The notes beneath the pieces are model-generated. The model made no database searches. It saw only the letters and a program-made list of their open reading frames with translations, and was not told the origin of the DNA. This document shows, piece by piece, positions 21,092 through 50,690 of a DNA stretch of 64,000 bases (the stretch's first letter is position 1; the number at the start of each line of letters is the position of its first letter). The DNA is from Psammoneis japonica (taxonomy: Eukaryota), in NCBI GenBank assembly GCA_008632985.1, contig QPGO01000075.1:64517-128516 (forward strand), given 5' to 3'. A program made the position numbers and the translations under genes.

Positions 21092-22486
21092 GGTCAGTCG
21101 TGATAGACAACGAAAGTCAAGCGCATCTACGTCTTCGAGACACACACAATTTTCAACTTGGAAATGGAAGAAAGAATCGTTGATACACCGTACTACCCGT
21201 AATGCGATGTAATGATCTGTAACTTACAGGTGTTTGGTGCTAGTCTATCATTCTCCATCCATTATTTGTTGTTCTCCGGGATTAGAAAGCCTGGTCAGTT
21301 GATGGGTCTTGGCGGGAAATTCCGTTCGGCTGCGGACGGTTATTGATGCAATACTACCTGGATTGAAGGTATCAAAACTGTATGTTAACAAAACATGTCA
21401 TTTAGGACCATAAAGACTCAATTATTTATATTGTTATTCAGCTTTGAAAGACGAACGAAAATGGCGGGGGAAAATCTTGTGATGGAAAGATCCAGATAAC
21501 GCAACACGCAACACATCATTGTCAATGGTGAGCGAATCCGACATCCACTGCACTTTACTTGCACTCCAGTGCAGAGATAAAGCGATTTATGCAATCAGTG
21601 CTATAGGAGTACCGTATCAACTAGAGAAGCGCGACTTTCGATAATGTCCGTTGCCTCTGGAAGCCTTAGCGGAACGATGTCCTCTTCCATGACGCTACTC
21701 ACTGTGGGTAGTGCTGCATGCTTGGGAGAGGCAGAGTCAAGCGTACAAGCATGGAAACCGCGATGAAATGCGAAGACGTCACGAATTTCGAATCAATCAC
21801 AAGGGATACGACAGCTATTGGGGCTTATCGCTAATCTTCTCAATCAAGAAACAACGGGCGAGCTTCCGTGTCTGAAGTCTTCAGTTCTTTTTTAGTTTCG
21901 ATCACATTTAGTTACGCAAGGAAACAGTAAGAAAGAGTCAATTGAGGAAACAAGGACTGGTCGGCTAGCTAAGAAACTATGTTACACAAAACAGTACGCG
22001 ACTTGGACAAATGATGCAGTGAAACGTACAACCAGCTGTAAGTCGTACACTCACAGCTCGCAAGAATCGCGAGAAGGACCAAAGTTGAGAGATGCACCTA
22101 CTAGTATCTAATATCACAAGTCACGAGGAGGACAATAGAATGTAGCGATAAAGCGGAAAAGCATCGACACTGGTGAAGAGACTGGGTTCCAAATGTGCTG
22201 AAAGGGAGCGAAGTATGCGGAACCAAAACAAAGAGGGTCGCTTAGTAACCAGTCGAGTCTTTGTATGCCTTTGGAGACAACACAGAGAAACGAAAAGGAA
22301 ACAATCCGATTAGAAAAGAGCGACTCAGGAATCAACAGATATCTATAGAATGGGTTTAGACTGCTCTAAATTCAAGAAGGGGATCCATTCGCTTTATCGA
22401 AAATGATCCAATCTAAGATTCCAACGTATGCAAGACTTGTTAGCCTGTAAACGAAGCACGAGTGTTCTTTGCGGAAGAGAAGCTCT

Positions 22487-23008
22487 CTAGTTCTGGGTAG
22501 CACCAAAGTCAACAAGAACATCCGTGACGTCTTCAAAATACGAGTAGGGTCCCTCGCGAAGAACAGCAGCCATAGTCTTCTCGAAACGGCGATGAAGCTC
22601 GGCCGTGTCACCGGGAATCACGTCTTGGAGCTCGCGTTCCTCTCCCTCGGCAAGCTTACGGCCTCCATAGCAGAGGAAGCAGTTGCCACCGTAGACTCCG
22701 CCACCCCAGTTCCTTCCGGGGAGCTCACGGTGAACCGGGTCACTACCGCGGAGAGCACGGTTGGTTGGCTCCTGCTGAGTCTCAACAACGAAGGACGTGG
22801 CTTCGGTTTGCGGTCCACTCGCATTCGAATGGACGAGGTTGTAGGTATCGACGAGCATGTTCTGGAAGTACTCGGTCTCTTCGGGGGGCATCTCGCCCGA
22901 CGCTCCAACGATATCGAAGGTGGTGTACTCGTGAATCACCTGAGTGGCGGAGGTGGACTTGGCGGAGAGGGCAACGGCCACGAGGAGGGGGGCAAAGGAG
23001 AGCTTCAT
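22487..23008 (-). CDS. Small secreted protein with RXL sites and a CxxC motif (paralog A)
   Basis: Signal peptide; RALRG..HREL-PGRNWGGGVYGGNCFLCYGG-RKL; highly similar to 24004-24534. Confidence 0.85.
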   Translation of the reverse strand: MKLSFAPLLVAVALSAKSTSATQVIHEYTTFDIVGASGEMPPEETEYFQNMLVDTYNLVHSNASGPQTEATSFVVETQQEPTNRALRGSDPVHRELPGRNWGGGVYGGNCFLCYGGRKLAEGEERELQDVIPGDTAELHRRFEKTMAAVLREGPYSYFEDVTDVLVDFGATQN

Positions 23009-24003
23009 GGTTGCGAATGGTGAGAGCTTTTTGTCGTCAGAAGATCAAGAGAGAAAATTGTGAGCCGTCTGGAAGGGGAAAGTGAAATGAAAAATGTGAG
23101 TGGTCGCGTAAACGAGTACCAAGACTGTGTGGAATATGGTGCTCACTCATACATGTCAACGCAACCTCTGAACTCTAGTCAAACTCTGGACATTTGCTTT
23201 CGTTCAGCTCTACGGAACTCGGCAGACAAAGAAAGTCACTGTGAAAAGATGGACCAAAACTCGGAGTCGATCGGTTTGCTCTCTAAGTGTTGCATGTTGG
23301 TCGCATTTTCGTTCCATAACAACACACGACGCGCGCTTTGATTCGCGACCACTATGGCAGATGTACACAAGACCTGTCTAAGTAAATTTCCCGCACGCGG
23401 TACGTATTGCCTTCACTTAGATGGATGAGTGATGGCGGATTCATTGCAAGAAGACTTGAGCATTTTAAATTGGTCGCACTCACTCTATGTAATCTTTTAC
23501 TTAGGCAGATCGTGAGGGTCGCAACGTCCGCGGCACAGAAACAACTACAGAGATCATCTACTGGAGCCCACAGGGCAACGTGACTGGTTCTTTTCTCTAA
23601 GCGAGAAATTTAATACCAACATTGTGGATTGCTACTTAGAGGAAGTCGTGAATAGAAATGGCGGGAAAACAAGGCTCAAAAGCGACCCCACCATATTATT
23701 TTCCTCGATGTAGCGGAGATATGGCTTTGTCAAGTACGCCGGACGATTTTGGTCCTCTTTTTCATCAATGACTATGTTTGAGAACCAGCGCCTGTACAAT
23801 TTCACAAGGAGGAATGCCAGTCTTAGCGACAATATGAAAGGGTACGACAAACTCCTGTATGCTACAGGCTCTCTGGTAGTCCTTTCGTTCACGAAAAATC
23901 TCGTTGGACCGGAGGAGCAATCACTTTTTCACCTCTCGAACTGCTCACAATTCTCTCTCTTGAGATTTCACAACCGCAGGAAATCATACTCTCATCCGAA
24001 ACC

Positions 24004-24534
24004 ATGAAGTTCTCCCTTGCCTCTACCCTCCCCATTGCGGCTCTCGCCTTGACCAAGTCCGCCGCCGCTACCCAGGATATCCACGAGTACACGACCTTTG
24101 ACATTGCTGGTGTTGCCGGTGAGATGGCATCCGCTGAGAAGGCCTTCTTCGAAACCATGCTTGTGGACACGTACAACCTCGTCCACTCGCACGAAGAAGG
24201 ACCTCAGACGGAAGCGACCTCCTTTGCCGTCGAAAGCCAGCAGAGCGAACGCCGAGCTCTCCGTGGTGAGACTACCGACGAATCGGTTCACCGTATGCTT
24301 CCAGGCAGGAACTGGGGCGGCGGAGTCTACGGCGGAAACTGCTTCCTCTGTTATGGAGGCCGTAAGCTTGCTGAGGGAGAGGAACGCGAGCTTCAAGATG
24401 CGATCCCAGGCGATAGCACCGAGCTTCACCGTCGCTTTGAGTTGACCTTCGCCGCTGTACTTCGTGAGGGCCCCTACAGCTACTTTCACGATGTTTCGGA
24501 CGTTGTCATTGACTTCGGTGCCACCCAGAACTAG
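24004..24534 (+). CDS. Small secreted protein with RXL sites and a CxxC motif (paralog B)
   Basis: Signal peptide; RALRG..HRML-PGRNWGGGVYGGNCFLCYGG-RKL; divergent partner of 22487-23008. Confidence 0.85.
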   Translation: MKFSLASTLPIAALALTKSAAATQDIHEYTTFDIAGVAGEMASAEKAFFETMLVDTYNLVHSHEEGPQTEATSFAVESQQSERRALRGETTDESVHRMLPGRNWGGGVYGGNCFLCYGGRKLAEGEERELQDAIPGDSTELHRRFELTFAAVLREGPYSYFHDVSDVVIDFGATQN

Positions 24535-24917
24535 CTTCTCTTCGGTGAATCTTATTCCTCAAGCTACTTCTTCGTGTGGGTGTGGTTCTATTTCCGGTTT
24601 CTTGGGACTTTCGAGTCGCGAGAGTATGTGTTTCGTGACGAGGATCTGTGGTGCTTGCAATCAACATGTATTGCATGCACCAGCCATTGAAATAGCTTTA
24701 GCGTAGACCTAATTGGATAACTACTAGACGTGTTGTCCCTATGGTATAATACAAGCTATGACTTGATCGTTCGTTCGACAGTTAGCTTTTCCCGGCAAAG
24801 AAACTTCGTCGAGCTAGTGCTACTTGACCTGTGCGTATTCCTGAGCAATTTCGAAATAATCTGGAAAACTCAAAACTCCCTCCGACAAGGAGAGCGAGGT
24901 GGCGAGCGCGAATGCGT

Positions 24918-28041: not shown

Positions 28042-30813
28042 ATGGAATCGTTGTTGATGAGTGGTGACAATGGCGGAGGAATGGATCTCAATATTGTTGT
28101 GGAGAAACCGACAGCTTTAGCAACAAATAAGCCCCGCAAGCCCAAGAAACGCAACAAGTATGAGAAACGACGGGAGAAGGCACGTCGTGCACGAGAAGCG
28201 GCAGAACAAAATGAAACAATACAAATACTAACGAAAAGGAAGAGACGACTGAATTAGTTCCTTCTTTGCTAAATGATGCTGCTCAGAACGGCATTGTCCG
28301 AGGAAGAGACACACACGTCGATGATGATAAAACAACATCAGAAATTGTTCCGACCAGCGACACTCTATCGACAAGCCGACGTCGTCACGACGGAAAGAGT
28401 CTAGACACTGTCCAAAATCGAGCAAAGTACATGGCAGAGTTCCATGCTCGACCTCTGGAAATGGATCGTCGGAGTGGCGCAGTGTCGACCTTTGCGCGTT
28501 CCAAAGATTCCCAGCACATTTTTGATGATGCGTGTAACAACGAGAGTGATTCAACGACGACTCCGTGGTCCCATTTAAAGCTACAACCCCGAGTCGAATC
28601 TACTCTTGTGGGGCATTTCAAGCTGAGCAAGGGGCCCACGGTTGTCCAGAGCCGTTCAATCACGTCACTGACACATCAGAGTAGGCATAACTTGTTTGTT
28701 CAGAGTGAAACAGGAAGCGGGAAGACCCTAGCATACCTCGTCCCAATTCTTCAGGTAAGCAAGCTGTGTGTAGTCGTGTATGGAGTACCTCCATGACGAA
28801 TCTTTATACATTATGGTTAAGACATGAACTGTGCTCGGAACGGAGATCGTCGAATGGTATGGTTGAGCCACCGCGTCTTTTTTGAGATGTACGGTTGGCA
28901 CCTGTGCTTTGGTGACCTTGTTTCGAGTGCTTGATTACAAACTATTGTTTTGGAGAGGCCAATGTGTTCATTTGCATACCATTATCAATACTGAGGCATG
29001 GGCTTGCTCACTCTGCGTTGTTGTAATTCTTTAGAGTTTAGCCGTTGACAGCCAATCGGGTCAAGTGAAGCGCATTGATCGAAGCAAGGGGGGGACACGG
29101 TGCATTATTTTGTGTCCCACCCGAGAGCTTGCGTCACAGACAGCTTCAGTGGCAGAGCAGTTGTGCCGGTACTCGTATTCCTGGATTGTGTCTGGTTGCT
29201 TGTCTGGAGGCGAACGTCGTAAAAGTGAAAAGGCTAGAATACGCAAGGGTATTACAATTTTGATTGCTACACCGGGGCGCCTACTGGATCATTTGGGCAA
29301 GACGGAATCGTTGCTAATGGCACTCAAGGGAAAATTGGAATGGCTGGTTTTGGATGAAGCCGATAGACTGTTGGATATGGGACTTGGATCACAAGTGGAA
29401 CAGGTTGTGCAGCACGTCCGGGCAAATCAACCAAAAAGTGGTATCAATAAAGACGGTGTCACGTGGAGGAGTGTATTGGTGTCTGCGACAGTCACCAAGA
29501 GTGTGCAGGACTTGGCACAAACAATGCTAGGAGGAGACGAATGGAAATGGGCAAGAGGGGTCAAGGACGATAGGGTGGTCAAGGCGATTTCTGACGCGCA
29601 GGATGAAGCACAAGAAGAGAATGAGTTGACATTGGAGGATTCTACACCTCGGCAGTTGAAACAACTTCACATGACGGTAAACGCCAAGCTTCGACTAGCT
29701 GCACTTGTGGCGTTTTTGGTCCAGCGAGTCAAAAACAAGGAACGTACTGTTGTCTTCTTCTCCACTTGCGACAGTGTCGACTATCATCATGCTTTGTTCG
29801 AAAAGACGGATTCGCTTTTGGATGTAGCAGAGGATGACACGGATAGTGACAATCCAGTAGGCTTGTTTGGAAAGGCTTGTCAGGTTCACAAGATTCACGG
29901 TAGCGTTCGGCATTCGCAGAGACAGCAGATTTTGAGCAATTTCGCGTCCGCGCCAACCGCCGCTGTCTTGTTGGCGACTGATGTTGCCGCACGCGGTTTG
30001 AACCTGCCTGGTGTCGATTGGATTGTTCAGTACGACGCGCCCAGCGAGGTGGCAGATTACATTCATCGTGCTGGCAGAGCTGCGAGAGCCGGTCGTGCGG
30101 GTCACTCGCTATTGTTCTTGTTGCCATCGGAACGCGCATTCTTGAATGTATTGGAAGCCAAAGGACTAAAGGACATGACAGCTTTGTCTTTAGCATCCAC
30201 TCTGAATGGCGCTGCTGATATTTGCAAGGATACTTGTGAGTTGGGCGGCAATTCAAAGAACCAATCGAGACTCGGCGAAGCGTTTGGAACTTTTGTACAA
30301 AGGCGGTTAGAAGATGTTTTGGCGGAAGACGACGCCCGTCACCAAGAGGAGCAGAAAGCGCTTTTGGCTAAGAAGAAGAAACGCACCGCTGCCAAGCCCA
30401 AGAAATCGTCTGGTCCACTTTTGGAGATGGCTACCAAGGCATATTTTTCTTTCGTCCGGGCCTATCCCACAAAAGAAAAGGTTATACGTCACATATTCTC
30501 TGCTCGGGCCATTCATTTGGGACACATTGCGAGATCTTTTGCCCTCAAGGAACCTCCAAAGTCCCTTGCCGTGCGTGACAAACAAAGTGGTAAAAGCAAG
30601 GATGATGATTCTCAAAATCTGAAACGAAATGCATCTCTTGCCTTCCAAGAAACGTCTGACACGAATAAGAAAGCAAAGATGACCACATCAGAGGCTAATC
30701 GCAAGGAGTTACCCTCGAGTACAATGGATGATCGAATGAATCCAAAGCGTGCCCGTAGCATGCTTCTTGCCCGGGCTGCTCAGTTGCAAGGCGGTGGAAT
30801 GGACGCTTTCTAG
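28042..30813 (+). CDS. DBP7: DEAD-box RNA helicase DBP7/DDX31-like; intron at about 28755-29033; apparent frameshift at about 28240
   Basis: SETGSGKT, PTRELA, GGERRKSEKARIRKGITILIATPGRLLDHL, DEAD, SAT, HRAGRAAR and HLGHIARSFALKEPP motifs. Confidence 0.9.
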
Positions 30814-31237
30814 ACTAGAAGTTGCTGAATAGTATTTCACCTTGCAATGCTTAGCTTATAAATTAGGAGCTTCCTACCGTCGACTATGTACCTCGCAAGT
30901 AGTAGCTAAGCACTCTCATGAAAGACGACTTCGAGGTTGATGCCATCGGGGTCAAGAACATCAGAGGCTTATCGCAAGGAGTTACCCTCGAGTACAATGG
31001 ATGATCGAATGGATCCAAAGCGTGCCCGAAGCATGTTTCTTGCCCGGGCTGCTCAGTTGCAAGGCGGTGGAATGGACGCTTTCTAGACTAGAAGTTGCTG
31101 AATAGTATTTCACCTTGCAATGCTTAGCTTATAAATTAGTAGCTTCCTACCGTCGACTATGTACCTCGCAAGTAGTAGTCTTCTAAGCACTCTCATGAAA
31201 GACGACTTCAAGGTTGATGCCATCGGGGTCAAGAACA
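30685..31237 (+). repeat. Near-identical tandem duplication (about 273-bp period) of two convergent gene 3' ends
   Basis: 30685-30957 is repeated at 30958-31237 with about 6 substitutions and a 4-bp indel. Confidence 0.92.
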
Positions 31238-31705: not shown

Positions 31706-32124
31706 GTTGTTGCCAATAAGATGTACACTCTGACATCTGAGCAGTCAAATGAATTTGTTCTTCTGGAGCGAAGAAAGCATTTCCAGGAGTTCCTTACTGT
31801 TCCAATCAATCTTCAATCACTTACGTACTCACTGCTTCCCTCTTCAAGAGAAGAAAACGGGCGTCCGCCAATGAGAATGTAACTGAGTGAGTCAGCATCT
31901 ATCGGGCGGTTGTCAGTTGTCACGGAATCGACAAACTATGGCGCGGAGGACGTTGCGCGCGCGAGCAAACGAGAACGGTTGTACGTATGTCTGTGGAATT
32001 GGGTGTCAACGGAGAGACGAATGACATATTATGCCTTGCGCGCAGGTGCCCCCGCGCGAACGTCGATTTTTTTCTGCAGTCGCTCCGCTCACCGCAACGC
32101 ACAAAAAAGCACAAAAACGACGCC

Positions 32125-34031
32125 ATGACAAACAAACTCAGTCGAATGAGAGCCGGCGGCGGCTCGTCGTACTCCCACGCCCCTCAGGCAATGGCTCCAA
32201 GTCACCATGATGATGTTGTGTCACAAGATTCATCAACAGTGTCTCCAGAGCGGGACCCACCAAGAGAAAGGACCGAAGTTCCAACGCGCGCCGAAACCAA
32301 GCCGACACCACCATCAATCCCTGTACCCGATCATATTCCTGCACTACCTCAGAAGCCACTGCTGCCTCCAAAACAGAGTGAGCTTTACAAGAAGGACTTG
32401 TCGGGTGCTGTCACAAAGCCAAGGGGAAAGAAGGTTGCCCCCCACACAAATGCAGTCGTGCTGGCGAACGAGCGCATTGAAAAATTGGAGAAGACTTTGG
32501 CAGAAAAGCACAACAGCCATGGACACTTGGAGGCAGCAGCGGCCACATCTGTTGATTCCATGTGTGACAATGTGAAGTCCATGCACAGCAGTCTTGTCAA
32601 GATGGCCCAGTCAAAGGCAGCGCTTCAAAACAAGTTCTGCGAAATTCAGAGCGCAAAGAATGCCGCGGTTGAGCAGTCGCGACGAGACAAGAAGGAGCTG
32701 GAGAGCATGGAAAAGGATTTGAAGAGAAAGAACAAGCAAATCAAGTCATTGAAACAGCAGCTTGTGGCAGCCAAAGAATCCAACAGGAAGAACAATGGCT
32801 CCAGCGACAATGCCTCGCAGGACGACGTGCATGAAAAGAAGAAACAAGCGAGCCTGTCACGTGTCGAAGAATTCAGGGTGAAAGAGCAAATCAAAGTTGA
32901 TTCGAAAAAGCAGGAGAAGAAGAATGCTTTAGATGCAAAGAAGGAACGCATGCAATCACTGCATGCTTCCAATGGGCAGTTCGTTGTGAGCATCACATCA
33001 TTGCTTTGTGCGTTCGTGCATCTTTCGTGTCTTTCATTTCTTTTTGATTTCTTTGACTCCACTCACTGGCCTTTTCTCTTCTTCCTCAAAAAGCTTGGTT
33101 CCGGGTGTCCAATGCCACATGGTCAGAGGCAGTCTGATGATTCCCATTGCCAAGAACAAACAAGGCGTCGTGGTCGTTCCCGCAATCGACGCCACAGCAG
33201 CAGTCATCGTGGTCATTCAAGAGGACACGGGAGCAGAGGCCGCAGCCGCTCTTGCCACAGTCCAAGCTCCAGCGATGGTGAGAGTGACTGCAGTGATTCC
33301 CATTGCTGCCACAATCGTTCTCGCTCTCGCCGCCGTCGCAGTCGCTCTCACCACCGTCGCAGCATCTCTCGCCGCGGTGAGAGAGCACTCGCGCCAGTGA
33401 CAGGGAGCACAGTCGCTCTGACAGCATCTCTCGCCGCGGCGAGAGTGCTCGCACCAGTGACAGGGAGCACAGTCGCTCTGACAGTGTCTCTCGCCGCGGT
33501 GAGAGCACTTGCGCCAGTGACAGGGAGCACAGTCACTCTGACAGTGTCTCTCGCCGCGGTGAGAGTGCTCGCGCCAGTGACAGGGAGTGCAGTCACTCTG
33601 ACAGCATCTCTCACCGCAATCAAAGTTGGTCTGGCCGAAGCATGGGTGACCAAGAAGAGAGGCGCTGTGTCACTGCTTCTAGTGGCTACAAAGACGATCG
33701 CCACTGCAACCAAAACCAACCTCCCAGCTCCTCCTCCCATGATCGTTGCAGCTCCCATGGACATGATGGAGGGCATGATGGAGGATGTGAGGAAGAGCCC
33801 GTGCATTCTGATGAAAACAGCATGCAGGAGAAGGAGAACTGCCATCCTGATGGCAAGGAGAATTCCTTTCAAAATGGCGTGGGGCCACATTCCTTCCCTG
33901 GTCCTCCAAAGAATCATCCTGCATTGACTGCACCATCCTTCTCATTGTCCAACGAGTCTGAAAGTTTGCAAGTCTACGAGGATGTTGCTTTGAACAATGC
34001 TTCTGTTGGACGTGAAGGCATGGATGTTTGA
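32125..34031 (+). pseudogene. Transposon-borne accessory ORF: coiled coil plus Arg/Ser-rich repeats; probable intron at about 32986-33093 and a 2-bp frameshift at about 33380
   Basis: Lys/Glu heptad region, then RSRSRRRRSRS and 20-aa repeats that continue in the 33642-34031 frame; Cys/His at positions where Tyr is plausible. Confidence 0.65.
33361..33617 (+). repeat. 60-bp tandem repeat, about 4.3 copies
   Basis: AG(CA/TG)TCTCTCGCCGCGGTGAGAG(CA/TG)CTCGCGCCAGTGACAGGGAG(CA/TG)CAGTCGCTCTGAC. Confidence 0.95.
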
Positions 34032-34084
34032 AGACGAATTTCTGCAGAACTCCTGCGTGAACCACTTGATGCTTTTGAAACCAA

Positions 34085-34459
34085 TCAAGACTCTCTGTGC
34101 TGGTGACCATGTTTGCATCTTGTCACCATTGCACTGTTCAGGTGTGTCAATCTAGATCCAACTCCGTCAGTTGTGGATCTGTCACTAAAAATCGCATCGT
34201 CCCTTGTGCTTTCTCGTGTGACAGTGCTCCGCAAAAAGTTAGTTTCATGTTCAAACACCCGGCACCATGAACAATGCGTGCCTGCTCTGTTCTCGCAAGA
34301 CATTGTTTTAAAGGACAGGAAACTGACAATGCTCACATCTTGCGTATTTTGTGGCTCTCGCCGGGGTAAAAGTCTAACTGCCGCATTTTTCGGATCAACA
34401 ATTTGAATCGAATGGATCCAATCTCGTAACGGCAAAGCAGCATCAATTTTTAGAGACAT
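34085..34459 (-). pseudogene. Possible third small ORF inside the transposon
   Basis: AAAAATG start (MSLKIDAALPLRDWIH...), about 124 codons, no recognised domain. Confidence 0.3.
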
Positions 34460-34767
34460 TTTTTGCGGGAAAACGCGTGTGTTTCCCTGGCATGGCAAGT
34501 CCCGGGTTTTCCACCAGCCGTCAGCCGTTGAACGGAAAGATCCAATGACCATTGATCATTGCTCAGAGGTTTTAGTCAGGATGTCAATGACTGTTCACCC
34601 TTCAAATGACATGTCCAACGGTTGGAGTTACATTGGCGTTTTCAAAAACCAGGGATTCAGTCCCGGGGTTCTGGCGCCCAGACATGCCTCTAGGGCCTGG
34701 AAGTTTCAACTGCATTTCAGTCCATTGTAGGTCATTCTACAGTGGAGCATTCTACAACAGAATGAGC

Positions 34768-35889
34768 TCAAGACACACATCCACATGCTCTGTGCATGCA
34801 GAAGACTTGGTCATGCACAATTTGGGACAACACGTCATGGGCAGCACAGGCGGTGGAATGCTCGGTGTGCGAGCGGAGCCTGCGGATCGGATGGCACTTG
34901 AGCTGTGTCACAAGTTGACACCACACAAGTTCTGCAGGGTTCCATTCAGGGGTCCTCGTTGGAAGAAACAAAACAAATGTGCCACACTCTGTCCACAGCC
35001 ATTCTTCAAGAACCGCATTTTCACCATGCACGTGGCAGGCTGCATTGTCTAGAACAAGGATGTCACCACCTCTGAGAAAGCCCCGATGCACTGCATGCTC
35101 AATCTCCATTGCAAACTGTTCCACATCATTCGGCTCATTGTGGATCCGGCAATGCACTGGGTGGGTCCTTGTGTCGATGCCGCAAAAGCCGATGACGGGG
35201 CATGTGTTGCGAAAATCAGAGGATGTGAAGGATGGCGGGACTTCCCCTGTTAGTGCATTTCGCCTTGTCCTTCGGCAATGCACTTCTGAACCTTTCAGCA
35301 GCTTCTCATCTCCGCATTTGACCCTCCACGGATCAACCTCGGCGACAACCATTGTGAACTCGCGTGCTCGTAGGATGTTGTCGGGTTTGAATTTGTCACA
35401 GGGAATGAGATTTGGCTTGCGAAGTTTCCCGCTGATTGGAAATGCATGATTCCAGAATCTGCTGATGGCAGCATTCGAAACCACTGCTCCTGTGAGGTTG
35501 CACAGATTCTCCCGACAGTTGGACAGCAAGCGACTTGGCTCGTCCAGATGTGGAATCAGAAGGACAAAAGCATCTAGACTGTCAATTGTGTTGACGCCTG
35601 GACCACACATTCGTTTCTGGTGAATCTTTCGCGGGTGAAGCACTTGGCCGCAACAGTCAAGTTCTCGCTCCACTTTGACCACAAATTTGCGGTCAACCCT
35701 GCAAACCCGAGCGACTTCTGTCAGATTCGGCCTGCCACTCTCTGACGTGTCTTGTGGTGATTGATGGACCCTCTGAACTTCGATCTTCTTCTTGATGCCA
35801 CATGCCCTCCCACGTTCATACGTTCCACCATTGTCATTGACAGCAAGTCCGCACTGGGCTGCAGTGGCGCAATCGATGTTGTTGGCCAT
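34768..35889 (-). pseudogene. IS630/Tc1-like DDE transposase (DD38E spacing), frame open but hypermutated
   Basis: GDEK...LVLDNAACH...LFLPTRTPEWNPAELVW; N-terminal HTH-like region; 1 Tyr versus about 23 Cys in 373 aa. Confidence 0.9.
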
Positions 35890-36591
35890 TTTGTTTTTTC
35901 ACGACACAATGTCTCGTCTACTTACAGCCTGCTCAAGCCACACAATGTCCCGTGTAATGCTGAATCATCAGAATAGATGGGTGCGACTGCAAGGGAGGAA
36001 CATGGAGATGCGACAAAGAATGAATTGCACAGAAAAGTGCAGCATTTCGGTGACATCCAAGCACAACAAATCCTGGTAGATTTCTCGAGTGTCTCTTCAA
36101 ATCTTCACAAGACCTTCAAGTGATATAATCTTAGGGACTAGTATAGCGTTTCCGACTGGTCAAACTATCACGATAATCGTCCAATTACTTACAATCAACG
36201 ACAAGATGCCATCCGGAGTCGTTTTTCGGGTTTTTTTTAGCGAGCGCGTGTCGGAGGGAGTCGAAAAAATTCTTGTGTGTCCGCGCGGGGGCACCTGCGC
36301 GCAAGGCATAATACGGTGCTTTACCGTAAAAGTCTCGTACGTAGAAAGATTACCATGTCTTCAACAATGTACGTGGTGGACATCGACAGCTCACAAAATT
36401 GCCGCCAACACGCATTTCATCGAATCCAATTTGGAAATTCAGCACAGGCTCTGCGTGTGTAGTTCGAACGTCTTTACGTTGTGTCGTGGTCTCTATCGTC
36501 AACTAGTGTCATCTACCATACGTGTGAAGAGATCATATACGAAGAAAGAAGCAATTGTTGCCTTAGCGTTGAAAAAATCGAACAAGAAAAC

Positions 36592-39249: not shown

Positions 39250-39900
39250 CCCATCAATTCCTCGCAATCGATGTCACTGTACCACAAGCTCCCCCGCCTC
39301 CTGCACCTGGTTTGCCCGTCCCTGAAAACCCACTCAACAAGGCTCACCTCAGCAGCACTCGGGACAAGCTCCTCGGCCGCTCTGCATCCTCTTCTCATGG
39401 TTCTGACGTCATTGACGCCATTGACCAAGCAGGCCTCTTCCTCCTCCCTTCTTTTACCTTCGACCACCTCGGAGGCATTGGGTGTCACTTCCATGTCTTC
39501 TTCTTTGGCGCCTCCACCACCACCTCCTCCTCCGTCCCACCCCTTCCTCCCAAACCACCCTGGTCAAGCCCATCCTCCTTGCCCAACTCACAAGCATCCT
39601 TCTCCGCCTTCACCAACTCCCTTTTGGCTCCTTCCAACCTCCTCGCCCAATCCAACGCGGCCTGGAAACAACTTTCACCCAACCACTTTGGCTCCTCCTG
39701 TCATGCAGCAACACCCCCACTCTGGGCCTCCCAAATCCTCAGTCTCAATTTCGGCTTTGCTCTTTCCAACCGCCTTTCTACATTTTAAGCTTTCCTCCTC
39801 CGCCACCCCACTGTCACCAACTCCTCCTCACAACCATCTGTCGCACCCTCGGCCAACCCTTTTTCTCTCCCTCGCCAAGCGCGACCACCTGTTTCCCCAC
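39250..39900 (+). mobile_element. 3' fragment of an RLE-type (CRE/R2-like) non-LTR retrotransposon
   Basis: FLAIDVTV...RDKL...FLLPSFTFDHLGGIG resembles the restriction-like endonuclease C-terminus; strongly C-rich sense strand; no RT upstream, so 5'-truncated. Confidence 0.6.
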
Positions 39901-41095
39901 CACGACAACTGCCAACCCCACGGACATCACAGTTGGTGAAAACAAAGTGACAGTGATTGAGAAATTTAGCAATGGTCATCACACAAACAAAATCTCTCAG
40001 AAATTCTTTCGTGCTCATTTTTTGCTCACAACTCGTCATCTCACATGATGTGTTTGTTGTTTGCCAAGCAGGGATGCAGGCGATCGCCCAGGATGGCTCG
40101 CCCTTCTTATGGACAATGGAAAGTCTTCTCTTGTTTGGCAATTGCACAACTCATTTAGCTTGATGGCGTGTTGTCTCCAGGTGGCACAGGTGTTGCCAGT
40201 CAAGTCCGGAGGTCGGGGCAAATCAAGTGCGTGTCTCCGGCCCAGAGCCCACATCATTCCTGTGTCTTTGACCGCAGGAAGTTGCCTGTTTGCTTGACCC
40301 GTCAGGTCACGGCTGTTGAAATGGACAGCAGCGTTCATCTGCAAAGCAGCAAAAGCTTGCCAAGCAGATCATGCCATTGACGGAATGTGGGGTTTGGGGT
40401 TCCGTCGCATCAGCGACATGATGCGGCAAGTCTTCACTCACAGGGGAGTGTTGATTTGGCACGCGGTTGACTCGCAAGTCATCTTGTTGTCTCTGCAGCA
40501 CATCCCCCCTTTTGCATTTTTTAGAGTGATGCTTCACTCTGAAGATGCACAAAAGCTTGAGATCCATCTTTTTTGATGGCGCTCTTGAGGCATCATTGCC
40601 CTGCATGACCAATTTCCACATCAACTTTTGACATTTCTGTGTTTCAAATTTTCGAAACGCGCTTTGAACCTTTGCAACAGATGTGGAAATGCCAAAAGCA
40701 AGACATGACAATCTTCGTTGGCATGCCATTCATTCTGCACATGCGTCAATGGACTGCGATGGCAGTGCTTGCAATGTCGTTGCACAGCTCCTTGCCTGGG
40801 GTCCATGATGGGGTGTTCGTTGCGGTGTGAAGGCTTGTCATCGACATGTGGTGGACTGTTCGGTGCTGCTTGCCTGCAGCACTGCATGGGCAAGCTGTTC
40901 CTCCATGATTGCACTTGCAAGATCACGGTGGACTGACAAAGTGCAAATTCGGACAACTGGGTGCTGTCCGAACAACAGCTGTTGGCACCTGCTCTTGAGG
41001 AAAAGACAAAAGCAATTAATCGAACCCCACAGACATCAAAATGAATCTAATTCCAGGTTTCCATGCCAACGGTTCCAAGTCTGATGAGCAATGCA

Positions 41096-44070
41096 TCATG
41101 ATTGCTGTGCATGTGCCAGCTTTTCTCCATTTTTCTGGGTGTCATCTCCAGTTGACAAGGCACTGGGAGTGGTGACCATTGGCAAGTTTTTGCCGCTTCC
41201 TTCATTGCCCCCGTTTCCTTCCTCCTCTGTGCCTTCTCCATCATCAATCTCCACATGGAAATCACTGTTCAGTGCAACACCCAGTTCAACATCCCCCACC
41301 TTGTGAAGCAAAGGTTGGCAGTTGTCTGGGTGGACCTCGTTCTTTGCCTTTAAAGTCGGCTGCAGGCACTGATTGGTGATGAACAAAAAATCATCCTGGC
41401 CTTCAGCTTGATTCTTGAGATTGACCTGCAACAAGCACTCCTCTCCTGCAGGCAGAAATTCTGCAACCTGCTTGTGTCTCTGCAAATGTTAAAAAGAACG
41501 TTTGCATCAACAGCGGAAGCACGAGGGGGGCAGCCCATCCCTTTCTTTTGAGCCCAAGTGCACCCAGGAGGGTCAGCTGTCCAATGATGGTTTGTGCTTT
41601 GACATTCCCATGAAAGTGATTCAATTCTGCTGCCCATGCCTGGCTTTGCTGGGCAGTTGCAAAAGCACTTGTGCCTCCAACACAAGCACAAGATTCCAAA
41701 GCAAAACATGAGAAACCAGTTAAAGAGAGGCACCATTGACAAACAGACAAAGAACACCTTTGTGTGGAGTGTGGAGTGCGTTTGCAGAGGCAACTTCGGC
41801 ATGTGGAAGCCTGAGAGGGTTGCACAGTGGACACAAAAAGCCATGCGACCTGCGAGAAGACTCCTCCTTGGCAAGGTCAGGGCCATGACAGCATTGCAGG
41901 GCTGCCTTGAAGAGTGGCAAGAAACAAAGCATTTCGACAGTCAAGCCAACAAAGGTCTTTGCCAACAAAAGCTGCACAAAATGGGTTGACTGCCCCGGAA
42001 GGGACGTCGCCAAGAAATCAATTTGCTTGCAGGGTCACAGACAATGTTTTGAACTTCAGCCCAAATCCCTCCTGATGCAGCAGACACAAAGAAAGTTTGA
42101 ATGATCAAAAAAGAACAAGTTTTGGGAGCTGTTGGGCAACCTGTGCAGCCTGTGAAAGCGGAAATTCCACAAGCACAATCCACTCAAGCAGGGTGGGCAA
42201 TGAAAAATTGAGTGGAACGAGAAGGAGCGGAGCAAGACTTTTGAAGAAGGTGGAGAGCCATGGTTGCTTCTCCAATGAATTGGCAAGCCATGACATCTCC
42301 TGTGTGAGAGATTCAATGTTGCTCAAGGATGAAACAAATGCTGTTGGAATTGTCTGTGATGATTGAAGGGCTGCTGTCAGTGCAATGGCAAGGAGCCCGC
42401 CAGTCTGCAACTTGTGAGAGCTCCTTCCATCGTTTCTGTGAAACACATTTTCTGGATCGGGTGCATCGTGCGCATCCATGCTGAATGGTGTTGAATGATG
42501 AATCCCCTGCAATGCAGATTGCTTGGAATGAAGGTTCTTGAAACAGACAAAACCGGCATCCCGTGGCGACCCTTCCTCTTCTCCCCACACCAATGCCAAC
42601 ACGCTTGTTGCGCTGTTGTAATTCCCTCTTTTGCCTTCTTTGCAAGTTTCTTGCTCAACGTTGCACCCAGCTTGGCACCCTTCTGAAGAGAGTGGGTGAC
42701 GGATTCAGAAAAATGCGACACTGATGTCTGCAGCTTGTCCACAACGTTCCTCTTCAAGCCGCCCAATCTAAAAACTGGAGGTGTTGCTTTCTTTTCCACT
42801 GCAGCCTTCTCTGATTCTGCTGTTTTGTGAGCATCCACAACATTTTCTCCCTTTTTGACCTTTGGCAAGCTTTCTGTCTCAGCGCCTTTGCTTGTTGTTT
42901 CCTTCTCCTCTTGATCATGCTCCAATTGTAAAGTTTCTTGAGTGTCCATGAAAATGTCTTCCTGTGCTGACACCTGGTCTGTTGCATCTGGGTTGGTCTG
43001 GTGCACGCCCAATCCTGTTGATGACTCGTCTGCTTCTGCAATGTTGCAGCCATTCACGAGCACCCTTTTTGAGTGCTGCATCATGTTGAAGCTTCAAACA
43101 CTCAATGACACAGACGTCTTCTGCAATTCACTGGTTTGAGTGGGTGATTCCTCCACCGCTGCAGAATGGCCTCCTTTGTTTGCTTTCGTCACACCCTTGG
43201 TTTGTTCAATGTTGGTCAAATGCTCAAGTTTTCTGATGAGAGCCTGCCATTTGTTGACCTTGGCTTCCAACTTTGGAATTCTTAGAGCCACATGCATATC
43301 TGGCACACCATCTGTGAATGACAGCAAAAAGCATTTTAACACAGCATCCGATCAATGGCACAATCTGGAATGCCTGAATGCACATGGCACAATTTCGTGG
43401 CTCACGCTCCAACTGAAAGGCATGTCAGTGGGTCAAAAACCATTTGAACTCTTGCAAGACAAAGCACATTGTAAATCCAAAGACAATTTGGGTCGACAGT
43501 GAACAGCAGAAATGAGATGATCCGATCCTGGAGGAACATGTGCAGAGGATGATCTCACAACTGAGTCAAGCTGCACATTTTCTGGAGTGGCACGGCATGC
43601 CACAGATTGGAAAGAGCCAGATGGAATTGAACATTCCCGCCAAGAAAATCTTCGTCCAAAAGATGAACATGCAATCCAAACATGCCGAGTCCATGCCGCA
43701 TTGCTCCCAAATCTCCGTTGAGCTTGCTCGTTGAACCTTCCAAACCACGACACAAAACCACAGGTTGACGCTTCCACAATTTCAACACGGCCATTCTTTG
43801 GGACAAAGATTTGTTAGACAGCATTGAGCCAAGCAATCTCTGCATCCTTGGCTTCTGCGAAGGAGTCCCAGCTGAAGGTTCCTGGTTCCGCATCTTCCCA
43901 CCCCCATCCGCACCTGGACAGCGACTTGCAAGAACAAAGATTTTTTTACACCACCTGTGTTGACACACCATGACAAAGAGAAATGCCTCATGAGCAAATG
44001 CGAAGCCTCCAAACAACCTTTCCAGGCAAGCTGTGCTCACTGTCCGCTGATGGCAGACAGTGACCAGCAA
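41096..44070 (-). pseudogene. Decayed OSCA/CSC1/TMEM63 (ERD4-like) channel gene
   Basis: Collinear fragments across frames: EQCGMDS..GMFNSIWLFPI; VALRIPKLEAKV..RKLEH; AGFVCFKNL..QSALQ..APDPENVF; TIPTAFVSSLSNIESL; ATSLPGQSTHFVQ; GPDLAKEE; PLFNWFLMFCF..RHK; QCLQPTL. Confidence 0.85.
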
Positions 44071-46059
44071 AAGCCATCATCATCTTCTGTCGGCAACGCA
44101 CCTTGATCTCAAACAGTCGCTGCAGTTGCATGAATGCCACTGTGGCACAAAGCAAACAGAGTGCGTGGCTGCAGAAAAAAGGCCTGCACACAACCGTCCT
44201 TTGGCCCCAGCACACCTCTTGCACAGGACTGAAGCTTTGATTGTTCTGGAAAAGGGCCTTTCACTGGAAAATGGAGTTTTGAACCATCTTACATTGCAAG
44301 ATGAGGGACAAAACTGCAGCAAGATTGTGTGTGCTCTTGAATGTCTTGGGCACACAAATCTGGACACAACACCCAACATGCAATCGCTGCATGCTTTTCT
44401 TGCATTCCTGCAAGGTGCGCTGGAGAAGACCCCCCACCAAGGCTTCCAACTGTCCAAACTCAAGGGCGGCCCTCTTGACAAGAGCTCTCTGGTCCTCAGC
44501 ATGTCATGTGACAAACCTTGCATGTTGAGTTTCTCCCAATTAAAAAAAGTCTGTCGATCCCTGCGGAACCACTTGATGACAGTGTTGCGCGTTTGTGGGG
44601 AGCTCACTTGAGAAGAGTCCAATGAACTGTGGAACATCACTCAAAGAGTTGCAATGATGCACAGCCAGGTGTTTGATCATGACCAACGGCGCCACTGGGG
44701 CAGACAAGACAGCATCCATCAGAGCTGTGCACTGGTGCATCATGGTGATGGCAGCACGAATGCGCCGATGCCGCGTGCTGCAAAAACGATGATGACATCA
44801 CGATTTTTTGGTGGGAAAGTTGGCCTCAAAGCAAGTGCGCTGCATGGCACATCTTTCAGGAGGACAAAATCTTGCAGCCAAGAATCATGGCATGGCAATG
44901 AGCCATCAAAGCTGCTGCGGCAAAAAGGTGGCATGCGCTGCTGCCAATGGAGAACACTGTTGGTGACATGCTCTGGCACCAGGGAGATGAGAGTCACATT
45001 GCTGTGCCTGCTGCTCAGGAGAGATCATGCACTGCTGATGCCACATGCTGCCACAGGCAGAGCAAATGGCAGCCATTGTGCCAGATCTTGCCAAAATGAG
45101 AGGAGCAAAGAAGCAATGTGGCAGTTGAGGCCAGCAGACATTGGTTGGCAGGTTTCTTCCATGTGAGACTCTTGTTCTTGAAGAGGGGTTTGACAAGGAC
45201 TTTTTCTGCTGCCCCTTGCTGCCTGCTGCCAGGATGACAGGTTGCACCATTTTGGTCTTCTCAACTTGGAGGAGATGGGAGAAGCTCAATGCTGTGTGTC
45301 CCCATCTCATCAAGAAACCAAACTCACCAAGAAGCACTCTTAGGGGGGGGAAGGGGGGGGGGGGGGCAGATGAGCTGAGGACAGTGGTTGTTGTGAGCAC
45401 AAATCCTCACCATGCTTTGCCATTGCAAGACTCTCATGAAGGCAAAGTGTGTTGCTTTTGCTGTTGGACCTGAGCCCATCCACTCCACTGTCTGTGTTGG
45501 ACCTGAGTCCCCTCCCATGCATGTGTGCTGGCTTTCCTTTGTCTGCCATGTGAAAAGGGTGTTTCTTGACCCAGATGTTGTTGAGTCATGCGCCAGCAGT
45601 CATGCCATGAAAAATGGCATCAAAATGCCCACAAGCACATGTTTGTCATGACCCTTCAAACAATGGCAACATTTGACAGAAGCAAGCAGATGCTGACCCA
45701 ACTCACCTCTTGTTGCACTGGGTGATCATGCCCATCTTGGTCACATTTCATTTGCCTGTTGACTTTGTTTGATGACTCCACTCTCTGTGGCAGCTGGGGG
45801 TCACATGCAAGCACAGCCCATGCTCATCACCTTGGGCAGGCCAAGTGATGAATCCTGCCAAAGTCAGAGCCTTTGGTCAGTGCTGCTGGAAATTGTCTCG
45901 CTGTTTGTTTCAATGAACTTCCCAAGCTGTTTGACAAGGCCAAGTTTGAGAAATGTTTTTGTGTTGTCACACAAACCTGCATGGGCAACAAGTGTTCACC
46001 CTGTTCCTGGAAAGACAGTGAGACAAACACAACAGCCATTTGCGCCAAATTGAGAAATC

Positions 46060-46735
46060 AAATCTTCCAAGTCTCTTTCCCCAGACACCAGGCAACACAA
46101 CCCTGCAACTGTCCGCTGCAGCTCTCAAAGTGTTGCCTGGCACTCATCAAAATTCCCAGAGCCTTTTCAGCCTGCAGGTGGGGCCGGTTTTGGCTGGTGG
46201 GCTCCACTTTGATCTCCAGCACCACAGGTGGCATCAAATTTCAAGTCCCCTCCCACAGACAAGAAGCAGGCTACAAAGTGGCTGTTGGGACAAGAGACCA
46301 ACCCTGGAGCTGTCCCCCACCACAGTTCTCAAGTTTTGCATGTGCTGGCACCCAACAAATGCCCCAAGAGCCTTCAGCCTGCATTTGTTGCTTTGGCTTT
46401 TGGGTCCCAACCAATTTGACCTCCAGCACCACAGCACCAGCACCAAATTTTAAGTGTCTCCTCTCACAAAGACAAGCAGGAGGTGTGGCAAGCGGCTGTG
46501 CAGACAAGAGATGATGTTAAATCTGCAGCTGTCTGTTGCAGCTCTTGAAGTGTTGTGCCTGGCACTTGCCCTCTGATGTCCCAAAAGGTTTCAGCCTGCA
46601 GTTGTTTGGCTGGTGGGTCTTGCTCTGACCTCTGGCACCACAACCAACATCAAATTTCAAGTTTCTTCCCACAGACAAAGCAGCAGGCAGCAAAGTGCTG
46701 GCTGCAAGGGCAAGAGATTGACCACGCAGCTGCCT
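46060..46735 (+). repeat. Diverged tandem repeat of about 205-210 bp (about 3 copies; a further related copy at about 47200)
   Basis: CAAATTT(C/T)AAGT at about 46235, 46444 and 46651, each followed by ...GCAGG...GGCTG...CAAGAGA; related CAAATTTCAGGT...GTGGCTGCATGGGCAAGAGA at about 47207. Confidence 0.75.
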
Positions 46736-46762
46736 GACATGGCGCTTCTTGAAGCATCTCCT

Positions 46763-47022
46763 GGCCTGTTCAGGCTCCAGGTGATCTGCTTTTCATCACG
46801 CGAGAGGCCGATTTTCTGCGCAGTTTAGCGCAATTGACTCCTTCAATTTTGATCGTTTTGAAAATCGAAAGGTGAGTGTACACCCGAAAACACATGCAAA
46901 GTGTGCACTTGCCCTTCGATTTGGCAAAAAACGGATTTGGAAAAAGCCAATTGCGCCCAATGCACAAATTTCCAGATGATGGGAATCGAACCCGCGCGGA
47001 GCACCTGGAGCTGGAACAGGCC
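46763..47022. repeat. Imperfect inverted repeat of about 260 bp, CpG-retaining
   Basis: GGCCTGTTCAGGCTCCAGGTG...GCGCAATTG...AAATCGAAAGGTGAGTGTACAC pairs with GTGTGCACTTGCCCTTCGATTT...CAATTGCGC...CACCTGGAGCTGGAACAGGCC. Confidence 0.8.
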
Positions 47023-47969
47023 TCCTGGCACCCACCAAAGAGCACCCTCAGCCAGAGCTTTTCTGCAGCTGTTGCTCCAACACAGCTCTGAAACAAGCAC
47101 TGCCTGGCACCCACCACCACAAATGCACCAAGTGCCTTCAGTTTCCCACACAGTTGTTTGGCTTGTGCACATGGCCCATTTTGACCTGCAACAGCTTTGC
47201 CTGCACCAAATTTCAGGTCTTTTTTTCTCGTGGTTCAAGTGGGCAACAAGTGGCTGCATGGGCAAGAGAGCAGCAACCCTGCAGCCAGTTGTCAACTTTT
47301 GCCTGGTGCCCACCAAATCACCCTTGGAGACTTCAACAAAAAGCTGGGCCATTTTTGCCACACTGTGTTTGCACAGCCAATTTTGTCATGTGCAGGCTTT
47401 GCGACATTTCTCACAAAGGATGGCACAACTGACATGGCGGGACATCTGAAAATGACTCTGGATCTTTCTCTGTCAGTGTCCCCAGCCCTGTGGATGCTGC
47501 GCCCAGTCATGTGGCACTCTGGCGACCTCACCTCCCACTCTCCTGCACTCCCCAATGATTCAAAATGCTCTTGTCTCCACCCAAAAGTGGGGACTTTGAC
47601 TTCCTGGTTTGATGATCTTAAATTGCGTGTGCTGTTGAGGCACCCACAATTGCAGATTGTTTGATTTCTGTTCAAGCTGTGATGGGTGGCAGGCAGCGGC
47701 AGCTCGGATGATGTTTTGATGCCACACTTGGCTGGATGGACTGTGATGGTTGACGGCACACCATTGGCAGATTGCGCTGCAAATGACACCATGTTGCCAG
47801 TGCTCCAGTGCTGGCTAGATTGGGGTGCTTTGCATGAATTGTTTTGACCTCTGCAACAAATGTCTGGCTTCTCAGCTGCATGTCTGTCTGGTGCTTCTGT
47901 TGTTGTTCATTGGGTCAAAGGTCACCAAGATTGCACAGCACCCCCCAAATCTCTTTCTCTTCAAGCTGA

Positions 47970-50690
47970 GCCAAGTGCTCATGATGATGAGTTTGCTGCT
48001 GATGGATGCCAAGGCCAAGGTCTGTTTTCTGGCAACACCTCTCTGGCTCCTTGTGAGCCACACTGCACTGCAAACTTGGTCATTTGGGGCTGCTCTGTTG
48101 CTTCCACATGCAAGTCACTCCCGCAACATGAAGCTTCCATTCCAGCTCTTTGACTGCAGCACATGATGGGCAACAAGTGTGGCTGGTCAGATGAGCTGCT
48201 CACCTTGATTGATTGGACAATGCACTCCAAGTTGATGTCTTGTGATGTTTGCCACAAAGTCAGCACAGTCAAGCTGGTGTGTGAGGCTTGCCACCCACGA
48301 ACAAGACAGCCAATTGCTGCAACCCACCACTCACCCAGCCAGATTGTTGTACCTGTTGTGAGCATCCCATGGAGCACTGGGATTGTGCTCTTCATTGTCC
48401 TCACAACAAAGCCTGGCACAGGAAGTTTGTTCTCCAAGGAACACACAAAAAGTGCAGCAATGTTGATGTCTCCTCACCCTCCAAGCATGACTTGCTCCAA
48501 CAGTCTGCTCTGTCCTGATGAGATTCTTTTGACAACATGAAAGCGGTTGCCAAGACAGTGTGAGTTGGTGGCATCTTTTTCTTGATGGCCGCTTTTCTTC
48601 TGTGGTGCAAAACTTGGGCATCACACTTGCTGATCAGTGGATTGCATTGCAACCAGAATTCAGGGGAGTCAATGATTGGGTTCGGCAGCAACAACCTGTG
48701 CTTTTGTTTGGTCTCAGCAGCAGGAGCTGGGGGGCTCAGTGCATGGCAATTGCTCTCATGGCCACAACTTTGTCAACCAGGAAGTCAGCTCAGTGACACA
48801 AAGGATGATGAGGTGCACTTGTTTGGCTCATTTGAGAAACATCTTGCTCACTCCATGCACACATGGACTGTGCAGCTGGTTGGCTGCAGTGAAACCCATG
48901 TTCAACAGGTTGACTCAATGTTTTGCCACTGGGCAAATGGAGCCACATCAGAGGCTGCAACATGGGGATTTTTGCTTTCCTCCTTCACAAGCTTTGCATC
49001 TTTTGTTGTCACAAATGTTTGCAAATGAAAAGATCAAAATCCCAGTGACAGCAGTTGATGCAATGTGTTTGCATTTGACATTTCCATTTCAGTCTCAATT
49101 GACTTTTCTGAAAACTGATTGATGCAAACATGTTTGTTTTTGACAATGATTTTAATTGTCACCAAGTTTTTGTGGTGCACCTTTTTGCTTTTCATTGGAT
49201 TTTTGCAGTTGAACTTGGTTTTGACTTTGTTTCTCCCACTCATGTGCCTGTGTTGTTGGCATGTGCAGCACGTGCTTCCCTGCGCTGCGCTGCACCTTGT
49301 TGCCCCTGCAAGCTCAAGTGGCCACCACACACCCCAATGCATGTTTCCCTCTTGCTTTCTCAGTGTTGCGTGCCACATCCTCCCGTTGTGTGATTTTTTC
49401 AGCATTTTGCGATTAAATTTTTACACATTTCATGACAGCACACCCTCTCCCCAAATGCCAAAAGAAGAGCATGTGCTGCGGTTGTGATTCACATGCATTT
49501 GACATGATGCCACCAACCGACAACAGGCCATGGTGGCGAATGACTTTGCCCTGTCAGCTGACAAGGTCAGCCCCAATTCCTTGTTTGTCCTCTTTGATGA
49601 CAATGTTGATTTTGACAACATTGAACATTTTGCTTGTGGTTTTGGCATGGAGTTGTTTGGACAAAAGTTCAAAAGCACAGCAGCTGCAACATGTGCCTCC
49701 TCCAAAAAGCAGCTTGTGGAGCAAACAAATTGGGCACCATCTCTGGAATTCCTTGCACTTCCCTTCCTTTGCTGACAGAAAAACAAGCTGAGGAAATGCT
49801 TGGGCAGATGCAGGGTGCTGCAAGCCTGTCCAAAGGAAGACACCAATGTAAAAAATGAGGCAAAAAGAATGAGGAAGCTGAGCCAATTGAAGAACCATTC
49901 ACGCCAACTTGGGAGGGCAAGACTGTGGAAACCACTGTGGTGGGTGAAAAACTGACCAACAAGGAAGCGCATGTGTGGTTTTGCAACAATGTGCTGAAAT
50001 TCTCCAAGAGCACTGCAGCATGGAGCACAGCCAACTGCAGCAAGCAACAAAGATCCAAGCTGTTGGCACCAGAAAACTGCTGGAAAACAATGAATCACAA
50101 GGCAGCAAATGAGCAAAAGTTTTGACAGGGAGATGAAGACAAGGACAAGAAGGGAGAGAGCTGGAAACCACCAGCGCCAATGCACACAAACCCTGAGCAT
50201 CTTGTGATTCATGGGGAGATGCAGGAACAGAGTGACTCAATGAGCTGCAGCTCATGCAGATGAGCTTGCCGGTGGATGCCAAGGTCTGTTTTCTTCAAGC
50301 GACACCTCTTTGGCTCCCTTGTGAGCCACACTGCTCCATGAACTTGGTCATTTGGTGTGCTGCTCTGTTGCTTCCACATGCAAGTCAGTCCTGCAACATG
50401 AAAGAGCTTCCAGCGCCCAGCTCTTTGACTGCACATGTGATGGGTCACAAGCATGTGGCTGCTGGCTGGGTGAACCACTCACCTCATTTGATTGGACAGT
50501 GCACTCCAAGTTGTTGACATGCACAGCTGTGACACCCTGCTCACCCAGCCAGATTGTTGCACCCATTGTGAGCATTGCATGGAGGGCTGGGGCTGTGTTC
50601 TTCATTGTCCTCACACAACAAAGCTCGGCACACACAGGAAGTTTGTTCTCCAATGGCTGCACAAGAAGTGTGACGACATTGCTGTCAATG
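47970..50690 (+). repeat. Dispersed direct repeat pair (about 47970-48470 and 50240-50690)
   Basis: Shared CCAAGGTCTGTTTTCT, TTGTGAGCCACACTGC, GCTGCTCTGTTGCTTCCACATGCAAGTCA, TCACCCAGCCAGATTGTTG and ACAGGAAGTTTGTTCTCCAA. Confidence 0.85.

Follow-up and report, generated by a model that had tools for sequence, protein, structure and literature searches.

The stretch of DNA analysed here (the window, 64,000 nt of contig QPGO01000075.1 of the diatom Psammoneis japonica, positions 64,517 to 128,516 of the forward strand) contains a Tc1-like transposon whose cargo gene carries a tandem array of a 60-nt unit. At three sites of this unit, which we call A, B, and C, the copies alternate between CA and TG, and this alternation is probably the outcome of a hypermutation process directed at the dinucleotide TpA (TA) that acted after the unit had been expanded. 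According to this explanation, the 60-nt unit of the cargo gene would have been multiplied first and the element would have undergone TpA-specific transition hypermutation afterwards, a TpA becoming TpG through an A to G change on the + strand, and CpA through the same change on the opposite one. The ancestral sites would have been AGTATC, AGTACT, and GAGTAC, encoding Ser-Ile, Ser-Thr, and Glu-Tyr, and each unit would have resolved each site independently and at random as to strand. The features on which the argument is based are listed in Table 1.

Table 1. Features of the transposon and its tandem array (positions in the window), and dinucleotide content of the gene bodies and flanks
Feature	Position	Strand	Description
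60-nt tandem array	33360..33617	+	Tandem Repeats Finder: period 60, 4.3 copies, 89% matches
Site A, AG[..]TC	33363/33425/33485/33545/33605		copies 1-5: CA, CA, TG, TG, CA
Site B, AG[..]CT	33386/33446/33506/33566		copies 1-4: CA, TG, CA, TG
Site C, AG[..]CA	33408/33468/33528/33588		copies 1-4: CA, CA, CA, TG
Transposon with terminal inverted repeats	32027..36313	.	4287 nt; self-BLAST and alignment of the ends
Left terminal inverted repeat	32027..32061	+	34/35 nt complementary to 36279-36313
Right terminal inverted repeat	36279..36313	-	34/35 nt match to the left end
Cargo gene	32125..34031	+	coiled-coil-like N-terminal part, intron-like stretch ~32989-33094, Arg/Ser/His/Cys-rich part with the array
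Tc1-like DDE_3 transposase frame	34768..35898	-	open frame; Pfam PF13358, E 7.8e-9, 36 bits (cut-off 28.6)
TpA-poor tract 1	32401..34152	.	cargo body including the intron-like stretch; 4 TA in 32401-34031
TpA-poor tract 2	34754..35818	.	transposase body; 4 TA (5 in 34768-35898)
Cargo gene body, content			TA 2.5/kb; CA+TG 183/kb; CG 49/kb
Transposase, content			TA 4.4/kb; CA+TG 201/kb; CG 46/kb
Element flanks (two), content			TA 41.9, 49.3/kb; CA+TG 137, 148/kb; CG 56, 51/kb

The copies of the array start at 33360, 33422, 33482, 33542, and 33602, the last one being partial and the first one 62 nt long owing to an extra AG at 33383-33384. The array lies in the coding frame of the Arg/Ser-rich region of the cargo gene, where its units read DSISRRGES(A/T)RASDRE(H/C)S(R/H)S. 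When the three sites are pooled, the 13 cells (one site in one copy) comprise eight CA and five TG, a ratio that fits 1:1 (p = 0.58), with no TA and no CG; an earlier reading of the sequence alone had described exactly this restriction. Since sites A, B, and C each show both CA and TG, several units must already have been present when the sites mutated, and the proposal in the same sequence-only reading that mutation followed the expansion of the repeat is upheld. Furthermore, sites A and B occur in all four combinations among copies 1-4, which requires either recurrent mutation or recombination.

Because ancestral TA and ancestral CG would both yield the CA/TG pair, the choice between them rests on rates. 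If the three sites had been CpG (in Ser-Val, Ser-Ala, and Glu-Arg), they could have decayed by deamination of methylated cytosine on either strand, an explanation that we consider unlikely. In its favor, the other variable columns within the repeated homology are all CpG transitions, either CG/TG or CG/CA (four certain columns and an ambiguous one), and in a pair of 133-nt BLAST blocks within the array the 12 differences are all transitions, with no transversions; two more variable columns, GG versus AA in partial copy 5, stand at the end of the homology. Arg would also suit the Arg/Ser context, and an Arg to His change can be seen six bases from site C, with CGC at 33414/33474 and CAC at 33534/33594. 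However, the rate at sites A-C is not comparable with that at the other CpGs of the unit, as decay would have had to reach all 13 cells at three columns whereas CG survives in 21 of 26 cells at the six unambiguous CpG columns, which have similar contexts (including GCGC), or in 22 of 30 when the ambiguous GG[T/C]GAG column is added. The contrast between 13/13 and 5/26 converted cells gives a Fisher p of 1e-6 (6e-6 against 8/30), these values being only indicative as repeat copies are non-independent. The statement that the CpGs of the unit are mostly intact is thus right per cell, but by column four of the six (five of seven with the ambiguous one) have decayed in one copy or more. Ordinary CpG decay, acting more slowly, accounts for these other variable columns.

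It could also be argued that the sites were plain CpA/TpG in a tract in which neither TpA nor CpG is stable. A rare transition (C to T or A to G) would then produce a transient TA or CG, which in half of the cases would resolve to the opposite state. Alternatively, unequal crossing-over or gene conversion could have shuffled two old types of unit. Site A and the CGC/CAC column share the same split (copies 1 and 2 versus 3 and 4) and site B has a period of 2, which indicates that block duplication and recombination have shaped the array; moreover, according to a hand count, the confinement of five flips to three of the nine CA/TG columns is not improbable (~0.23). Nevertheless, the four copies contain no substitution at all outside pyrimidine-purine steps, so the initiating changes should be rare, and the six further CA/TG columns are invariant. 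Taken together, these two observations make ordinary mutation followed by flipping unlikely. Recombination, for its part, shuffles variants but cannot give rise to both states, and an unstable ancestor would still be needed for each site. We therefore regard this explanation as very improbable.

The proposal that the three sites were TA and not CG is the best supported one and probably correct, on the basis of the Tyr to His or Cys replacements described below, of a loss of TA matched by a gain of CA+TG, and of CpG being largely spared. The gene bodies of the element have lost ~40 TA/kb with respect to the flanks and have gained ~40-58 CA+TG/kb, with a loss of only ~5-8 CG/kb. As the TA loss is balanced by the CA+TG gain, the CA/TG excess traces to TA and not to CG, even if the somewhat low CpG observed/expected (o/e) ratio of the element (0.69 versus 0.97 in the background) is what CpG decay would produce. 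At the scale of the window there are three sharply bounded, nearly TA-free domains (1-2612, ~32170-35819, and 39280-50888), with TA o/e ratios of 0.05, 0.13, and 0.05 and CA and TG ratios of 1.46-1.97, the rest of the window having ratios of 0.60 for TA and 1.16 and 1.12 for CA and TG. CA and TG are elevated equally in these domains, indicating that both strands were mutated alike, and AA is not lowered. With the context rates given below, the likelihood ratio of TA over CG for a site converted in all of its four or five copies is ~10-25 counting only two events, and 100-600 if the copies are taken as independent, the larger values being overstated because repeat units are non-independent samples.

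The direction of the change can be deduced from the transposase, which was aligned with a hand-picked set of 35 of its 79 homologues, those with more complete sequences. The copy in the window has a single Tyr in 376 residues (0.3%), compared with a mean of 3.7% in the 35 homologues and 2.7-4.8% in seven individual ones (P(<=1 Tyr of 376) = 1e-5), and it is rich in His (5.1% versus 2.7%) and Cys (6.1% versus 1.7%). At the eight columns where at least 60% of the homologues have Tyr, the copy has His in three, Cys in three, Tyr in one, and Phe in one, the His and Cys codons being CAT, CAT, CAC, TGT, TGC, and TGC. One of these replacements, Y128C, falls in a column with 100% Tyr among the homologues, which points to damage and not to adaptation. 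The conserved columns also show Leu to Pro and Ile to Thr changes, which fit CTA to CCA and ATA to ACA, and in the cargo gene the sole column with Tyr in three of three homologues is Cys here. The 12 conserved Arg columns argue against CpG decay as the cause, since 11 keep Arg and the other one has Gln, none having become His or Cys. From these codons it follows that about as many TAY became CAY as became TGY, CGN being spared, and the end states as a whole indicate that TpA to CpA/TpG conversion took place in the element.

Hypermutation in place could be dispensed with altogether if the TA-poor composition had been brought from a donor genome, or if TA had been removed by selection against TA-targeting transposons or against UpA in RNA. 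Transfer is conceivable given that this transposase family is widespread in diatoms, and the depletion does track the two gene bodies. We give this possibility hardly any credence, as the replacement of fully or highly conserved Tyr residues by His or Cys is not the work of selection, the homologues have a normal Tyr content, and the intron-like stretch is depleted too. Furthermore, both the array units and the copies of the family differ by CA versus TG at the same places, which requires independent hits after duplication.

The evidence from other copies comes from one public read run (assembled contigs). The contig depth of the element flanks is ~55 and the summed depth of the interior is 187-1473, obtained from 559 contig pieces and not to be taken as a copy number, so the element is a repeated family in the reads of the organism. 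An assembly chimera or a foreign contig was ruled out, as contigs from both flanks continue into the inverted ends. Among 596 differing places between the window copy and the run, 464 are transitions (A>G 119, C>T 125, G>A 124, T>C 96). A site-level tally covered 31 of 600 rows, all with positions up to 35920 and one belonging to the left flank, and it contains six CA/TG doublets, so the copies of the family also record independent outcomes. In addition, TA is kept in the other copies at two places and in the window copy at one, and four places have CG in the other copies against CA in the window copy, the latter being in favor of CpG decay. Within the array region, the only one of the difference rows listed is 33440 C>T, sites A-C being absent from those rows, and scans of metagenomes with IUPAC patterns of the array and of the inverted end gave 0 loci each. 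The highest summed depth (1236-1473) is found in the bins 34155-34508. At 34487-34692, the contigs of other copies omit ~205-296 nt and carry ~30 other letters, which corresponds to either an insertion in the window copy or a deletion in the others.

The target had been proposed to be GTAT/GTAC, and both contexts are indeed heavily depleted (with the three domains taken together, to 0.037 and 0.066 of the expected number), but GTAY is too narrow a definition because ATAN and NTAT are equally lost. ATAN, NTAT, GTAC, and GTAG are all at <=0.07 of expectation, and GTAN overall at <=0.15. The survivors are mostly YTAR, the observed/expected ratios being 0.65 for TTAA, 0.46 for TTAG, 0.21 for CTAA, and 0.20 for TTAC. 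Within the element, RTAY occurs seven times versus 50.8 expected from the background, and RCGY 39 times versus 51.2. TpA as such is the target, modulated by the flanking bases and weakest at TTAA and TTAG. No clear runs that would indicate strand processivity were found: along the transposase the outcomes read HH CCC H, and both the array and the old duplications have mixed orders.

The loss of TpA is not uniform along the element. The erased tracts start ~100-280 nt past each start codon and end near each stop codon, and the gene bodies, intron-like stretch included, show a ~10-17-fold TA loss. The left end (18.7 TA/kb) and the intergenic stretch (20.4 TA/kb) are depleted about two-fold, and the right end (35899-36313, 415 nt upstream of the transposase) has 18 TA (43.4/kb), that is, no depletion. 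Tyr survives near the starts, at residue 27 of the transposase (its first Tyr) and at two positions among the initial 90 codons of the cargo gene. The shape of these tracts, in this one element, hints at a coupling to transcription units, and it resembles the tie of AID-driven somatic hypermutation to transcription.

Several points weigh against TpA hypermutation as the origin of the array alternation. The ancestry of sites A-C is deduced from rates and not from a less-mutated copy, and ancestral CpG gives an identical CA/TG pair. The array itself demonstrates that CpG decay is at work, in the 5/26 converted cells and in the Arg to His change at the neighboring CGC/CAC column, and an Arg/Ser-rich region would more typically have Arg (RERSRSD) than Tyr at site C. 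The units of a repeat are non-independent, so that both the Fisher p and the higher likelihood ratios overstate the case. The uneven TpA loss, with the right end spared and the left end and intergenic stretch halved, is not predicted by a simple model in which the whole foreign element is attacked. Moreover, the agent is suggested by analogy.

This analogy is with the chlorarachniophyte Bigelowiella natans. The preprint of Mettrop et al. (bioRxiv 10.64898/2026.01.13.699255) reports that, out of 302 new single-nucleotide mutations found in mutation-accumulation lines of this alga, 231 fell in two integrated viral regions, and that all but one of the 231 were A>G or T>C, every such one on TpA; the de novo changes occurred in some lines only. 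The same source describes 324 TpA-poor coding sequences, enriched for DDE endonucleases and reverse transcriptases, and 124 clusters of TpA-poor, CpA+TpG-rich windows, and proposes an ADAT2-like adenosine deaminase as the agent. This process resembles the one proposed here in its TpA target, which yields TpG or CpA according to the strand affected, in its confinement to foreign or mobile DNA with normal host DNA beside it (here, the inside of a transposon with terminal inverted repeats), and in its long-term signature, a TpA depletion with CpA+TpG gain in clustered 1-kb windows that includes DDE-endonuclease genes. In our window, the 1-kb windows of 40001-51000 have TA o/e ratios of 0.02-0.09 and CA/TG ratios of 1.39-2.05, and those of 32001-36000 have 0.06-0.22 and 1.33-1.69, which is borderline on the second cut-off of the preprint, our o/e being perhaps computed otherwise than its Rho. 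The differences are that the host is a diatom, a stramenopile (neither word appears in the preprint), that the loss is near saturation here (TA o/e 0.05-0.13 versus a Rho of 0.45 given there for the large viral region), and that the target is a multicopy Tc1-like transposon, with tracts following two gene bodies and known from end states. Our literature search found no report of TpA-restricted hypermutation beyond this 2026 preprint, and none for diatoms. The element would thus represent, judging from its composition and codons, a further case of a process described once before, and would extend it to diatoms. By analogy with the B. natans proposal, the chemistry could be adenine deamination in DNA by an ADAT/TadA-like enzyme, the process acting as a defense against mobile DNA. 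It is possible, but we hold it to be doubtful, that diatoms, and hence at least two distant branches of the stramenopile-alveolate-rhizarian (SAR) group, defend themselves by an A-to-G editing of DNA that is TpA-specific, is coupled to transcription units, and leads to near-complete TpA loss in mobile elements.

Other known systems resemble this one in part. Fungal RIP (repeat-induced point mutation) is likewise a transition hypermutation tied to a dinucleotide that ruins repeated mobile elements in place, with outcomes differing by copy, but it turns CpA/TpG into TpA (PMC2621366), the opposite polarity to the TpA to CpA/TpG change in our case. RIP was ruled out as the cause for this reason, given the TA and CA/TG ratios of the domains. 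The decay of CpG through 5-methylcytosine produces the same CA/TG pair from a palindromic dinucleotide and is active in the array and strong in two other domains, but it leaves unaccounted for the TA loss, the Tyr to His/Cys changes, and the contrast between sites A-C and the other CpG columns. Finally, the hypermutation of viruses and retroelements by deaminases (ADAR, or AID/APOBEC with their C-to-U change) also produces clustered transitions in foreign nucleic acid, and the preference of ADAR for a 5' U in its adenosine-to-inosine action on double-stranded RNA, as stated in the Discussion of the preprint (10.64898/2026.01.13.699255), fits the TpA context. Unlike these systems, the present one concerns a DNA transposon without an RNA copy step, affects an intron-like stretch, and shows a near-complete and strictly TpA loss with AA not lowered.

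The saturated signature found in a diatom Tc1-like transposon suggests that the process could be widespread among marine algae. Gene prediction will be misled by TA-free and Tyr-free "genes" in which both strands have long open frames, and orphan proteins rich in His and Cys may represent ruined transposon genes. CA/TG alternation should not be automatically equated with CpG decay. The array is an internal record of independent hits on both strands and an easy target for resequencing; if the editing-defense reading were true, tandem repeats like this one would be natural counters of independent strand hits.

With regard to the element itself, its DDE_3 domain and terminal inverted repeats identify it as a Tc1/mariner-IS630 transposon. 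Both ends start with TA, as would a TA target-site duplication, but this TA lies within the matched repeat. Among the 79 homologues of the transposase, identity reaches 63%, and the named ones are all from diatoms. A Pfam search of the cargo gene gave no family. An exhaustive homologue search with its N-terminal 419 amino acids yielded three distant matches (P0200-P0202, 23-29% identity), in which the Arg/Ser regions are absent or predicted in another frame (P0201) and the array unit is not alignable, and for the Arg/Ser-rich C-terminal 216 amino acids homologues at E <= 0.001 were not found. The extra AG of the first array copy shifts the cargo frame, the upstream frame being 31891..33927 and the downstream one 33381..34031. 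In this frameshift region, the TA-less sequence keeps both cargo frames and three antisense frames open over 150-680 codons. A DDX31/DBP7-type helicase gene adjoins the element (best relative 61% identical, named relatives only from diatoms), and its 3' end carries a 273-nt tandem duplication, 96% identical, at 30685-31237.

The other two TA-poor domains, 39280-50888 and 1-2612, have CA/TG o/e ratios of 1.7-2.0 and CG ratios of 0.29 and 0.16, respectively, and look like older targets of the same process with CpG decay in addition. No transposase or inverted ends were found in them, none of the candidates in the 11.6-kb domain 39280-50888 being convincing. Among 11 pairs of old internal duplications across the window, CA|TG accounts for 28 of 128 double differences, 26 of them from these two domains, and CG|TA for none; such CA|TG doublets are the main difference between the duplicates in the two domains. 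An OSCA/CSC1-type channel gene is represented by fragments, separated in the manner of exons, at 41723-42704 on the - strand within the TA-free domain (RSN1_7TM with E 3e-7, PHM7_cyt weak), and a gene of cellular type may also be affected by the TA loss; the match of the OSCA-like fragment to solved structures (E 0.006) is too weak for counting Tyr changes.

Elsewhere in the window, an inverted duplication with 73% identity (22474-23081 / 23927-24543) lies in DNA of normal composition, with A/G exchanges in 58 of 140 differences versus 16 C/T, and 22 CG|CA pairs. A 69-nt tandem array of six copies at 61602-62153 is followed at 62644-63909 by six spaced copies of a 75-nt unit, the conserved part of which, read by eye, encodes a putative KRGRPRKK-type (AT-hook-like) motif, and the last 2 kb of the window have a strong A-over-T skew (0.40).

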